Virus record (IMG/VR): IMGVR_UViG_2724679172_000001
Location: 1 to 11,593 of that record
DNA: 11,593 nt
Reading direction: 5' to 3' (one strand)
Source of the DNA: a virus
Taxonomy: Duplodnaviria; Heunggongvirae; Uroviricota; Caudoviricetes
In this document: piece after piece, positions 2,625 through 8,483 of the stretch
How the letters are laid out: every line of letters begins with the position of its first letter
Numbering within the stretch: position 1 is the stretch's first letter
Program-made: the position numbers and the translations under genes
Notes under the pieces: model-generated
Told to the model about the DNA's origin: nothing
Databases searched by the model: none
Seen by the model: only the letters and a program-made list of their open reading frames with translations

Positions 2625-2732
2625 TGTTAGATGAATGGAATTAATTTTCTAATATAACCAACTTTTTGCCAGTCTATACAGAAATAACATTCTCATTATC
2701 ATCCCCTCGGTCATTTCCTGCCTGGGGGATTA

Positions 2733-4486: not shown

Positions 4487-5994
4487 TGGCTGGAGGGCGC
4501 AAGATTAAATGCGTCACCAGCGATCCACGCTGGCGCGATATGGTAATCAAATACCGCTACAACTTTACCCAGGCTGTTGTCGATATTTTTGGGATGTTCC
4601 CCTCCCACCAGCAGCAGCAGATCATTCAGTCCGTGCAGGAAACGGGGAGTAGGACGACCGTCACGTCCGGACACGGAACTGGGAAGTCGTCCCTTACCGC
4701 GATGTTGCTGTTGATTTTTATGATCCTGTTCCCCGATGCCCGTGTCATCATTGTTGCTAACAAGATAGGCCAGGTAAAAACAGGCGTATTCAAATACGTT
4801 AAACAGTATTGGGCGAATGCAGTTAAGCGTCATGGGTGGTTGCAGACCTATTTTGTCCTCTCTGACACCATGTTTTATGAGCGCTCCCGTAAGGGGATTT
4901 GGGAAGTTCTCTGCAAAGGTTATCGACTCGGCAACGAAGAAGCGCTGGCGGGGGAACATGCGGCACATTTGCTTCTAATTCTGGATGAAGCATCTGGTAT
5001 ATCTGATAAGGCGATCGGCGTAATGACCGGTGCTCTTACTGAAGAAGATAACCGGATGTTGATGCTATCCCAGCCAACAAGGCCAAGTGGTTATTTCTAC
5101 GATTCGCACCATTCTCAAGCAAAAACCCCAGACAACCCGAAAGGGATCTGGACAGCAATTGTTCTTAACTCGGAAGAATCACCGTTCGTCACACCACAAT
5201 TCATCAGGCAGAAGCTTCTGGAATATGGTGGGCGCGATTCTATTGAGTATATGGTCAAGGTGCTTGGTCAGTTCCCACGAGAAATTAACGGCTATTTGCT
5301 TGGTCGTGATGAATGCGATCGCGCTGCTCGCCGCAAGGTGTTGTTGGAGAAAAACTGGGGATGGGTGGCAACGGCTGACGTTGGTAATGGGCGAGATAAG
5401 TCGGTCCTCAACATCTGCAAGGTATCTGGTCACAGGGATAAGCGGCGCGTTGTTAACTTTAAGGTAATGGAGATGCCTGGCACTATGGACCCATTGGCCT
5501 TTGCTGACTTTATATATAACGAATGTACGCCGGAAAAATACCCGAATATAACAATCGCGGTTGATGCCGATGGTTTTGGTTCTGATACGTGTGCGCAGTT
5601 GGTACGTCGTGGTGCGAACCCGGTACGTATTCGGTGGGGAAAACCCATGTTTGCGAACAAAGACAGGGAGCGATTTGTTAATCAGCGTGCCTACGCAAAT
5701 ATTATGGCGCGTGATGCCATAAAGTCAGGGCGTATGCGGATAGACAGTGACCCTAAAACGGCAGAGCAAGCGTCAAAAATCCCCTTTTTACTGAATGAGG
5801 AAGGGAAAATGGCGATGATGCGCAAAGAGCACATGCGGCAAAAGCTAAACATCAAATCGCCTGACCGATGGGATACCTACTGCTTCACTATGCTGGTGGA
5901 CTATGTGCCTGCTAATGAAGATATTGGTGCCGAAATGGCAACTTTCCGAGATCAGGTTCTGGCGGATATCGAAATGCCGGATCTGGATATATAA
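4486..5994 (+). CDS. pacB: terminase large subunit (ATPase/nuclease), PacB-like
   Basis: Walker A VTSGHGTGKSS, Walker B LLLILDEASG, ~500 aa, directly downstream of and coupled to pacA. Gene order matches the P1 pacA-pacB arrangement. Confidence 0.85.
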   Translation: MAGGRKIKCVTSDPRWRDMVIKYRYNFTQAVVDIFGMFPSHQQQQIIQSVQETGSRTTVTSGHGTGKSSLTAMLLLIFMILFPDARVIIVANKIGQVKTGVFKYVKQYWANAVKRHGWLQTYFVLSDTMFYERSRKGIWEVLCKGYRLGNEEALAGEHAAHLLLILDEASGISDKAIGVMTGALTEEDNRMLMLSQPTRPSGYFYDSHHSQAKTPDNPKGIWTAIVLNSEESPFVTPQFIRQKLLEYGGRDSIEYMVKVLGQFPREINGYLLGRDECDRAARRKVLLEKNWGWVATADVGNGRDKSVLNICKVSGHRDKRRVVNFKVMEMPGTMDPLAFADFIYNECTPEKYPNITIAVDADGFGSDTCAQLVRRGANPVRIRWGKPMFANKDRERFVNQRAYANIMARDAIKSGRMRIDSDPKTAEQASKIPFLLNEEGKMAMMRKEHMRQKLNIKSPDRWDTYCFTMLVDYVPANEDIGAEMATFRDQVLADIEMPDLDI

Positions 5995-6022: not shown

Positions 6023-7060
6023 TTACCAGAGCTTCGCGGCGTACTGCGTTTGGGGGAATGTGTATCCGTAACGTTCTTCGATTGCTTTGCCGTATTTTTT
6101 ACGAGCTTCATTCAGTTTAATGCCGGTCAGGTCGTCTCCAGAGGCCATCATTACGTCTAACAATTCCAGATCCATTTTATCCAACCTTGCCATTGCTTCA
6201 CGTGATGTACGTATCTTACGTTCAATGATATGGCGAATAGCCGGATCGGCATCCTCCAGCATCTTAGCGGATTTCTGCTTAAGGCTTTCATTGCGAATAT
6301 CGATGTTCCTTAAGATGTACGACTTCGCAACGTAGCTTGGCTGGTGTTTTTCCAGGTCACGAACACGATATAAGTTAAAATCGCCGAGAAGGCTGCATGG
6401 TACCGATTCGACGCCAGAATAAATTGTAATGCTCCGGCGTTCACCAACATTATTGACAACGGGGATCGTTGTCTTCGGTAGTCTTGCGAAAACCAATGCG
6501 CCATGTGCGCCAACTCTAAAGCGAGAAAGGGCATTGCTGCCTTCGATGTTTGTTGTCAGCACAACATCTGTATATGCCTCTTTACGCGCCCGGTAGATCT
6601 CGCCTTCAGGCTCAGCTTCAAAGAAGCGCTGTTCTTCTTCAAGAGCACCTACGATTTGAGAAAAAACCCTATTTTTCAGGCTTTTCTTTATGATTTTGTC
6701 GTATTTTTTTAGCAATTGTTCACGTGTAAATGTACGTGTTGTTGTAGCGCTTTGCACAACGACATGCGTGCTTTGATTGGTGTCCTCAATGATGAATGGG
6801 ATCGGAGAATATACAGACTCAACAATGTTCGACGCTTTGCCGTCGGCATCGCGGCACATGTCAACGAAGGCTTTCCATTCAGCAAGACATTTTTCAGCTT
6901 CTTCTAATATGTTTTGGTCATGCGTTAATGCAACATGGCGGAATTCCTCGCCAGCATAACTGGTATCATGGAAAACAGAGTTTGCGACCACCAGCTCTTT
7001 CCACCGTTCAGCGGTTTGCAGGAACCGTTTGTACTCTTTCTCGATCGACTTCTTACTCAT
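6023..7060 (-). CDS. hypothetical protein (345 aa) occupying the position of the P1 c1 immunity repressor (convergent with pacB, adjacent to the lox-type site); function unassigned
   Basis: Long ORF on the minus strand with an RBS-like AGGAAT before the ATG (reverse complement of 7061-7071). No catalytic motif recognised. I could not see convincing similarity to the P1 C1 sequence as I remember it. Looks somewhat more AT-rich than its neighbours by eye. Confidence 0.65.
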   Translation of the reverse strand: MSKKSIEKEYKRFLQTAERWKELVVANSVFHDTSYAGEEFRHVALTHDQNILEEAEKCLAEWKAFVDMCRDADGKASNIVESVYSPIPFIIEDTNQSTHVVVQSATTTRTFTREQLLKKYDKIIKKSLKNRVFSQIVGALEEEQRFFEAEPEGEIYRARKEAYTDVVLTTNIEGSNALSRFRVGAHGALVFARLPKTTIPVVNNVGERRSITIYSGVESVPCSLLGDFNLYRVRDLEKHQPSYVAKSYILRNIDIRNESLKQKSAKMLEDADPAIRHIIERKIRTSREAMARLDKMDLELLDVMMASGDDLTGIKLNEARKKYGKAIEERYGYTFPQTQYAAKLW

Positions 7061-7270
7061 TATTCCTACTCGATTTAGTTTTCTAACATAAAATTACTAT
7101 GACAAATTTATGTCGAATAACAGGGTGAGTAAAGGATCGAACTGTGATTTTTTGTCATCAATTTTAGAAAACCAACCGTAGAAACCACACTTCGCAAATT
7201 AAAGACCATGAAGGCAACGTGTTACTGGTCATCATCAATCTATGATGGATTAAAAAAAATCGGCATTTTA

Positions 7271-7302
7271 TAACTTTAAATAATTGGCATTATTTAAAGT
7301 TA
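7271..7302. other. rox-type recombination target site for the adjacent Dre recombinase (14-bp inverted repeats around a 4-bp spacer)
   Basis: TAACTTTAAATAAT TGGC ATTATTTAAAGTTA: the right arm is the exact reverse complement of the left arm. The 32-bp sequence is the reverse complement of the rox site as I recall it (TAACTTTAAATAATGCCAATTATTTAAAGTTA). The outer ATAACTT also matches the loxP arm start. Lies ~150 bp upstream of the recombinase gene. Confidence 0.85.
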
Positions 7303-7311
7303 GGCTATAAT
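7284..7311 (+). promoter_or_regulatory. candidate sigma70-type promoter overlapping the rox site and reading toward dre
   Basis: -35 TTGGCA (7284-7289, spanning the rox spacer), 16-bp spacer, -10 TATAAT (7306-7311). Recombinase binding at rox would be expected to occlude it. Confidence 0.35.
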
Positions 7312-7454
7312 CATGGGTAGATGATCAGTGTTGACATTACTAAAAATACGTGTCTCGAATCAAAGGCTTGTATTTTGAAAATTAACTTGTAGCTACCCTG
7401 TCATTTTTATATTTTTCGCGTAGCGTCATCTGTATATAGAGGCGAAATAGTTTC

Positions 7455-8483
7455 ATGAGTGAATTAATTATCTCTGGCAGTTCCGGTGGTTTTCTGCGCA
7501 ACATTGGCAAAGAGTACCAGGAAGCCGCAGAAAACTTTATGCGGTTCATGAATGACCAGGGGGCTTACGCGCCGAATACTTTGCGCGATCTCCGGTTAGT
7601 GTTTCACTCCTGGGCGCGATGGTGCCACGCTCGCCAGCTCGCCTGGTTCCCGATCTCACCAGAGATGGCCCGCGAGTATTTTCTTCAGCTGCATGATGCT
7701 GATCTGGCTTCGACCACCATTGATAAGCACTACGCCATGCTTAACATGCTGCTTTCGCATTGTGGCCTTCCGCCACTTTCGGATGATAAAAGTGTTTCTC
7801 TGGCTATGCGGCGCATCCGGCGCGAAGCGGCAACGGAAAAAGGCGAACGAACAGGCCAGGCTATACCGCTGCGGTGGGACGATCTGAAACTGCTCGACGT
7901 CCTGTTGTCCAGGTCAGAACGGCTGGTGGACCTGCGTAACCGGGCTTTCCTCTTCGTTGCATACAATACGCTGATGCGAATGTCTGAAATCTCGCGTATT
8001 CGTGTAGGAGATCTGGACCAAACAGGTGACGCTGTCACGCTACATATTTCACACACGAAGACAATAACGACCGCCGCCGGGCTTGATAAGGTGCTTTCCC
8101 GTCGCACTACCGCAGTGCTGAATGACTGGCTGGATGTTTCCGGGCTTCGTGAATATCCTGACGCGGTGCTGTTCCCGCCGATACACCGTAGCAATAAAGC
8201 CAGGATTACGACAACTCCCCTTACTGCACCTGCAATGGAGAAAATATTCAGCGACGCCTGGGTGTTGCTGAATAAAAGGGATGCCGCGCCAAACAAAGGG
8301 AGATACCGGACGTGGACCGGGCATAGTGCTCGTGTCGGGGCCGCTATCGATATGGCTGAAAAGCAGGTGTCTATGGTGGAGATCATGCAGGAAGGAACCT
8401 GGAAGAAACCGGAAACACTTATGCGGTATCTGCGCCGTGGCGGCGTGTCTGTGGGGGCTAATAGCCGCTTGATGGATTCGTAA
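7455..8483 (+). CDS. dre: Cre-family tyrosine site-specific recombinase, Dre
   Basis: 342 aa. Aligns along its length with P1 Cre from memory (for example HSWARWCHARQLAWFP against RSWAAWCKLNNRKWFP; LSDDKSVSLAMRRIRRE against PSDSNAVSLVMRRIRKE; GHSARVGAAIDMA against GHSARVGAARDMA; catalytic Tyr in LMRYL). The N-terminus MSELIISGSSGGFLRNIGKEYQEAAENF matches Dre of phage D6 as I recall it. A perfect rox site lies upstream. Confidence 0.9.
   Translation: MSELIISGSSGGFLRNIGKEYQEAAENFMRFMNDQGAYAPNTLRDLRLVFHSWARWCHARQLAWFPISPEMAREYFLQLHDADLASTTIDKHYAMLNMLLSHCGLPPLSDDKSVSLAMRRIRREAATEKGERTGQAIPLRWDDLKLLDVLLSRSERLVDLRNRAFLFVAYNTLMRMSEISRIRVGDLDQTGDAVTLHISHTKTITTAAGLDKVLSRRTTAVLNDWLDVSGLREYPDAVLFPPIHRSNKARITTTPLTAPAMEKIFSDAWVLLNKRDAAPNKGRYRTWTGHSARVGAAIDMAEKQVSMVEIMQEGTWKKPETLMRYLRRGGVSVGANSRLMDS

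Follow-up and report, generated by a model that had tools for sequence, protein, structure and literature searches.

Recombinase sites and recombinase promoters in related systems

Dre recombinase and its target, rox, are widely used as a genome-engineering tool, and, to our knowledge, their native regulation is essentially undescribed. The best studied relative is the Cre/loxP system of phage P1. Cre is homologous to Dre and also has a single target just upstream of the recombinase gene. In P1, the c1 immunity region lies on one side of the site and the recombinase on the other, and several promoters point at the recombinase gene. P4cre is positioned about 15 bp upstream of loxP, under the C1 operator Oc1e, and P3cre is about 87 bp downstream of loxP, with Dam sites. 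None of the annotated cre promoters uses loxP bases as its -35 or -10 element. The two systems also differ in the site itself, which has a 13-8-13 organization in loxP compared to 14-4-14 in rox, and in that P1 has cra between loxP and cre.

Promoters that are located within a recombinase site and are controlled by the recombinase are found in the res/TnpR system of Tn3 and in the irs/TnpI system of Tn5401 (PMC7157771). TnpI is a tyrosine recombinase (PMC7157771). Both sites are transposon-borne and consist of several subsites or accessory repeats, whereas rox is a minimal two-arm site. Panto, with its site pox, is a Dre-like recombinase; each of the enzymes Dre and Panto can recombine the site of the other (PMC4957104).

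The D6-like prophage and its recombinase

The DNA analyzed here, called the window, is a stretch of 11,593 nucleotides from the virus record IMGVR_UViG_2724679172_000001. It differs from both D6 records, being 98.1% identical to the D6 immC record AY753669 over 2.6 kb and 99.6% identical to the complete D6 genome MF356679 on the c1 side. Among complete matches, an E. coli plasmid is the closest (99.1%). Judged by these identities, the window is a D6-like plasmid prophage of the P1 family and not D6 itself. Phage-plasmids of the D6-like type are common on E. coli and Salmonella plasmids, and 132 of 5426 complete E. coli genomes carry the locus, which nearly always resides on a plasmid of about 90 kb. 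The neighboring genes, lpa, pacA, pacB, c1, dre and dut, are the same as in D6. Two tRNA genes, tRNA-Ser (TGA) at 56-142 and tRNA-Met (CAT) at 1128-1203, are situated upstream of the lpa-pacAB block.

The dre gene (7455-8483, plus strand) encodes a Cre-type tyrosine recombinase of 342 residues, of which 339 (99%) are identical to those of the published Dre, AAV84949. The protein carries the phage-integrase domain PF00589 (E = 3e-16, Pfam) and aligns with Cre (1nzb) over its full length (E = 9e-69). The catalytic residues R173, K201, H289, R292, W315 and Y324 are conserved in this alignment. The prophage repressor gene c1 (6023-7060, minus strand), annotated under this name in AY753669 and MF356679, is divergent from dre; the D6-type C1 repressor has no match to a Pfam family. 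The rox-dre module is also present near IS26 on pHS30-1 (L011, NZ_CP029493; 179 kb, IncFIB/IncHI1B), a large mobilizable plasmid of the resistance type. No c1 is annotated beside the module on this plasmid, and the module therefore also occurs outside intact phage-plasmids.

The rox site

Positions 7271-7302 form a perfect 14-4-14 inverted repeat, TAACTTTAAATAAT-TGGC-ATTATTTAAAGTTA, the 14-nt arms of which are 100% complementary. The palindrome is far beyond chance. The 32-mer has no mismatch to positions 4909-4940 of AY753669, annotated as 'region of crossover (rox) site for Dre recombinase', and, as in that record, it is located between c1 and dre. The circular map of MF356679 opens in the middle of rox. 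The same 32-mer is printed as rox, in both orientations, in PMC4777119 and in other engineering papers. An earlier note on this DNA had described a flawless inverted repeat, had matched it to the Dre target and had regarded the identity of the element as confirmed. The repeat and its coordinates are exact, the match is correct, and the identity is strengthened by the adjoining gene, which codes for a nearly unchanged Dre. The assignment of 7271-7302 as rox is practically certain. The element was already known as a recombination site, and its recombination by Dre is hardly in doubt, given that a site of identical sequence has been tested.

The left arm (7271-7284) is the predicted binding site of one Dre monomer, and the right arm occupies 7289-7302. 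The 4-bp spacer, TGGC at 7285-7288 of the plus strand (usually printed as GCCA), is asymmetric and sets the direction of the site. According to a mutational analysis of rox, the innermost arm bases (positions 2 and 7) function as part of the crossover region, which comprises about 8 bp (PMC4777119). It corresponds to 7283-7290, ATTGGCAT on this strand and ATGCCAAT as published (PMC4777119). The two rox arms are the only arm matches in the window apart from one with three mismatches, which is at chance level, and there are no extra Dre half-sites nearby that could serve as accessory or regulatory sites.

A promoter-like motif overlapping rox

A promoter-like motif on the dre strand overlaps the site. 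The hexamers TTGGCA (7284-7289, plus strand; 5/6) and TATAAT (7306-7311, plus strand; 6/6) together match the sigma-70 consensus at 11 of 12 positions and are 16 nt apart, within the separation of 16-18 nt seen between sigma-70 hexamers. The optimal promoter spacer is 17 nt, and there is no extended -10. Three parts of the site contribute to the -35-like hexamer: the final base of the left arm, all 4 bp of the spacer and the opening base of the right arm. Together these are exactly the central six bases of the crossover region (positions 2-7). The rest of the right arm fills the promoter spacer, so that the -35 and the promoter spacer are within rox, and the -10 begins at a distance of 4 nt from the end of the right arm. 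The earlier note had proposed a near-consensus promoter with 16-bp spacing and a -10 at 7306-7311, overlapping the site and pointing at dre, and was right in spacing, position and direction. Its statement that the -35 lies inside the spacer and right arm stands as regards the overlap with rox but needs correction as regards composition, because the last base of the left arm is included.

Transcription usually starts 6-8 nt after the -10 element, which would place the start at 7317-7320 on the plus strand. The leader between the predicted start and dre is about 136 nt long. It has no Rfam match and folds no better than shuffled sequences (z = 0.32), and a regulatory RNA in the leader was rejected on these grounds. 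A divergent promoter running through rox toward c1 was also rejected: the equivalent hexamer of the opposite strand, ATGCCA, has no -10 at 16-18 nt, and the minus strand contains no promoter-like match there. Neither of the two D6 GenBank records annotates a promoter between rox and dre.

The motif is the only match of at least 11/12 on either strand of the 11.6-kb window, for which 0.185 would be expected. Dinucleotide shuffles of the 394-bp intergenic region yield at least 11/12 on the plus strand in 2.1% of cases. If TTGGCA is kept fixed, a perfect TATAAT appears at 16-18 nt in 0.43% of shuffles of the downstream sequence. Taken alone, the promoter match exceeds chance only moderately; conservation is what gives it weight.

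Conservation among relatives of D6

The relatives were gathered without selecting on rox. Plasmid relatives were obtained by a search with the c1-dre intergenic DNA and viral contigs by a search with the Dre protein. The resulting set comprises 35 distinct sequences of the D6 clade, in which the identity of Dre falls to 70% and the flanks are down to about 68% identity or cannot be aligned. TATAAT is altered in one of the 35, a Shigella plasmid with TGTAAT, a split c1 and decayed rox arms. The triplets on the two sides of TATAAT vary in 3, 7 and 8 and in 9, 10 and 7 sequences, respectively, and the 3-nt linker between rox and TATAAT is found as GGC, GAC, AGC, GTA, TCA and GGT. With a summed variant count of 1, hexamer 7306-7311 is the most conserved of the 120 hexamer windows outside rox, where the median variant count for a single column is 6, and its conservation thus exceeds the background. 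The dre start codon is 152 nt downstream of rox, and this distance is constant among the relatives, except for 153 nt in one contig (L120).

These patterns support the view that the promoter-like motif is under purifying selection. The motif is probably a functional promoter, mainly because the conservation footprint is that expected of a functional -10. The overlapping promoter can be regarded as a credible feature, conserved and apparently without annotation. For the -35, conservation cannot be told apart from that of rox itself. Natural rox spacers include TAGC, TAGT, TGGA and GGGG, and the natural variants with a poorer -35 are TTAGCA, TTAGTA, TTGGAG and TGGGGA. The contig with the GGGG spacer (L109) would have its -35 abolished. 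Within the arms, position 9 (A/G) is the only commonly variable position, differing in 12 of the 35 distinct sequences. Many natural rox sites have the left arm TAACTTTAGATAAT (A9G), resulting in imperfect symmetry; the relatives with this arm include L089, L092, L095, L097, L105, L107, L115, L117, L007 and L009.

Possible autoregulation by Dre

The arrangement described above suggests how dre might be controlled. Rox is the single target of the adjacent Dre, which acts there to cyclize infecting DNA and to resolve dimers of the plasmid. A sigma-70 promoter would lie across rox, with its -35 at the center of the crossover region and the right Dre-binding arm in the 16-nt spacer. Transcription, starting near 7318, would run through the leader into dre and the co-oriented genes behind it. 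In Cre-loxP structures, recombinases of the Cre type clamp around each arm. Dre at rox and RNA polymerase at the promoter would be mutually exclusive because the arms are clamped in this manner and the -35 and promoter spacer are inside rox. Such exclusion would amount to negative feedback and would hold Dre at a low steady level. We infer promoter activity, the start site and repression from the sequence, and assign a probability of roughly 0.55 to the full account, in which a D6-like rox carries an overlapping promoter subject to negative feedback by Dre. The single step of repression of the rox promoter by Dre is given odds just short of even.

Autoregulation by occupation of rox, which the earlier note had proposed, is plausible because the -35 coincides with crossover bases and the promoter spacer is filled by the right arm. 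It has a precedent in Tn3 res and Tn5401 irs, where each recombinase controls the promoter within its own site. In these two sites, as in rox, promoter elements are found inside the binding site of the recombinase, although repression is demonstrated for the transposons and inferred for rox. The resemblance would be one of mode of action and not of family membership, since rox has no accessory subsites. By this analogy, rox may represent a new instance of a known regulatory design, and the principle would be extended to minimal sites of the Cre type. The D6 arrangement is not shared by the best studied relative, P1, the cre promoters of which only flank loxP.

The 11-nt sequence TTTTCTAANAT is put forward as an operator of the D6-type C1 repressor. 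It occurs exactly three times in the window, at 2645-2655 (plus strand), 7079-7089 (plus strand) and 7161-7171 (minus strand), compared to 0.08 expected occurrences, a ratio to be read with the fact that the pattern was derived after seeing the data. The first copy is upstream of lpa, and the other two are near the start of c1, between c1 and rox. None of the three overlaps rox or its promoter. The rox promoter would therefore be independent of C1 and active in the lysogen.

If Dre does repress this promoter, the low steady level of a potentially harmful recombinase would be explained without C1, and Dre/rox would constitute a compact repressor-operator pair. The spacer variants of rox that are used for heterospecific recombination would also alter the native promoter. 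The practical effect on engineered constructs would be small because the 32-bp rox alone does not contain the -10.

Putative site-adjacent promoters in the wider Dre/Panto family

A Dre protein search of bacterial genomes identified 74 loci in Pantoea, Erwinia, Rahnella and Mixta, with 41-47% identity. Most of these loci have a lox/rox-like site about 150-300 bp before the gene. Among the 48 non-redundant Dre/Panto-like loci, 33 contain a -10-like hexamer on the recombinase strand 22-24 nt after the right arm, whereas none of the 48 has one at the mirrored position. The hexamers of the Pantoea, Erwinia, Rahnella and Mixta loci are TATGAT, TATCAT, TAAGAT and TAATCT. The implied -35 in the 48-locus set (from L015-L088) abuts the right arm, and GATC sites are located between the two elements. 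In L015-L088, GGATCC directly follows the site, and more GATC sites precede the -10-like hexamer. The pattern suggests a family-wide promoter adjacent to the site, possibly sensitive to Dam methylation. Thus the Panto/pox and other Dre-like loci, like the D6 clade, have a promoter-like element tied to the site on the recombinase strand, but their -10 starts 22-24 nt after the site, whereas in the D6 clade it starts after 4 nt and the -35 is in the crossover region.

A different register is present in two viral contigs, L122 and L123, which encode Dre relatives with 55-56% identity. Their site, ATAACTTTATATA-ATGTCAGT-TATATAAAGTTAT, is intermediate between loxP and rox and is positioned about 184 nt upstream of the recombinase start. 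TTTACA-16-TATAAT is found with it, and this -10 falls within the site. Judging from the similarity of the spacers, the site appears to have the opposite orientation to rox when both are viewed relative to the gene. In P1 (L013 34-39), TATGAT is found 17 nt after loxP on the cre strand, where it overlaps the annotated Dam site 1. It echoes the family-wide -10-like element and is preceded by a poor -35 only, inside the lox arm.

A promoter tied to the site and directed toward the recombinase recurs in at least three registers. This recurrence supports a functional link between site and promoter and is silent on repression. The coupling looks family-wide on the loci compared. A broader proposal, which we hold only tentatively, is that the coupling is old and extends over Dre/Panto/Cre-type modules, with the recombinase acting as a transcription factor of its own gene and the promoter shifted into the site in D6. 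According to this proposal, the D6 clade would have moved the promoter 18 bp into the site, and the crossover spacer would have a double role, determining recombination compatibility and providing the -35. If so, promoter function would constrain the evolution of the spacer, and hence heterospecificity between related plasmid prophages.

A possible C1-independent promoter without feedback

The rox promoter might be real and yet not regulated by Dre. It would then provide basal, C1-independent transcription of dre and of the downstream genes, and Dre would be too scarce or too briefly bound to repress. The conservation of the -10 fits such a promoter, since it supports promoter function and is silent on repression. 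The two candidate C1 operators near this region, TTTTCTAANAT at 7079 and 7161, are not over rox, and the -35 implied for the wider family only abuts the site instead of being inside it. A full-text search of the literature other than the original D6 papers returned no report of autoregulation by Dre or Cre; the rox promoter may have been described earlier. What speaks for feedback is geometry. The -35 and the whole promoter spacer, up to the 3-nt linker, are inside the 32 bp clamped by two Dre monomers, and some interference would therefore be hard to avoid when rox is occupied. A promoter without feedback is considered rather unlikely, although it survives better than the explanations discussed below.

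The second downstream element

Another promoter-like element is present 44 nt downstream, at 7331-7360 on the plus strand. It consists of TTGACA (7331-7336) and TCGAAT (7355-7360), separated by 18 nt, and matches the consensus at 10 of 12 positions. Among the hexamers outside rox, TTGACA ranks second in conservation over the 35 relatives. TCGAAT lacks the critical A at position 2 of the -10. The element may serve dre as a further promoter or may bind a protein. Because a second conserved promoter-like element is found downstream, the rox-embedded promoter may be neither the only nor the main promoter of dre, and dre may have tandem promoters.

It could be argued from this element that the motif over rox is not an active promoter at all. 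In that case dre would be read from the TTGACA element or from elsewhere, and TATAAT would have been kept for another reason, such as a site for a host factor or an accessory site in recombination. The strong conservation of TTGACA, the suboptimal 16-nt spacer of the rox motif and the loose resemblance of 7322-7347 to the P3cre region of P1, with its Dam sites, are in line with this explanation. However, the conserved hexamer at rox equals the -10 consensus and is correctly spaced from a -35 that matches at 5/6, conservation is confined to the hexamer while its flanks vary, and the best -10 of the downstream element, TCGAAT, lacks its critical A. The properties of the recombinase also speak against an accessory function: Sauer and McDermott in 2004 reportedly found that Dre recombines without the help of further proteins from the phage or the bacterial host. 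Beside P1 loxP, tests for an adjacent PepA/ArgR accessory function were negative (PMC2409434). Inactivity of the rox motif is therefore judged improbable, slightly more so than a promoter that escapes feedback.

The weakest explanation, that the match arose by chance from an AT-rich palindrome within an intergenic region of 32% G+C, can draw on the AT-rich arms and on the single promoter-like match in this region at a threshold of 9/12, where shuffles give 2.2, but it is already disfavored and very improbable, because the 11/12 match is unique in the window (P about 0.004-0.02 by shuffling) and chance cannot explain the retention of TATAAT across lineages in which all neighboring bases have changed.

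Other motifs between rox and dre

The resemblance of 7322-7347 to the P3cre region is a lead only. The alignment of the region after rox with the P1 region after lox is weak, with a mean column identity of 59% and an inconsistent register, and is not sufficient to settle homology of the two regions. No claim is made for Dam control of the rox promoter, as the GATC at 7323-7326 of the window is GAAC in D6 itself. On direct reading, 7303-7454 contains no LexA box (CTGT-N8-ACAG) of the kind found beside P1 lox. The 12-mer TTTCGCGTAGCG at 7414-7425 is invariant in the D6 clade and is present exactly in P1 (L013 162-173), where it is unannotated. The gene that follows it, dre in D6 and cra in P1, begins about 30 nt further on.
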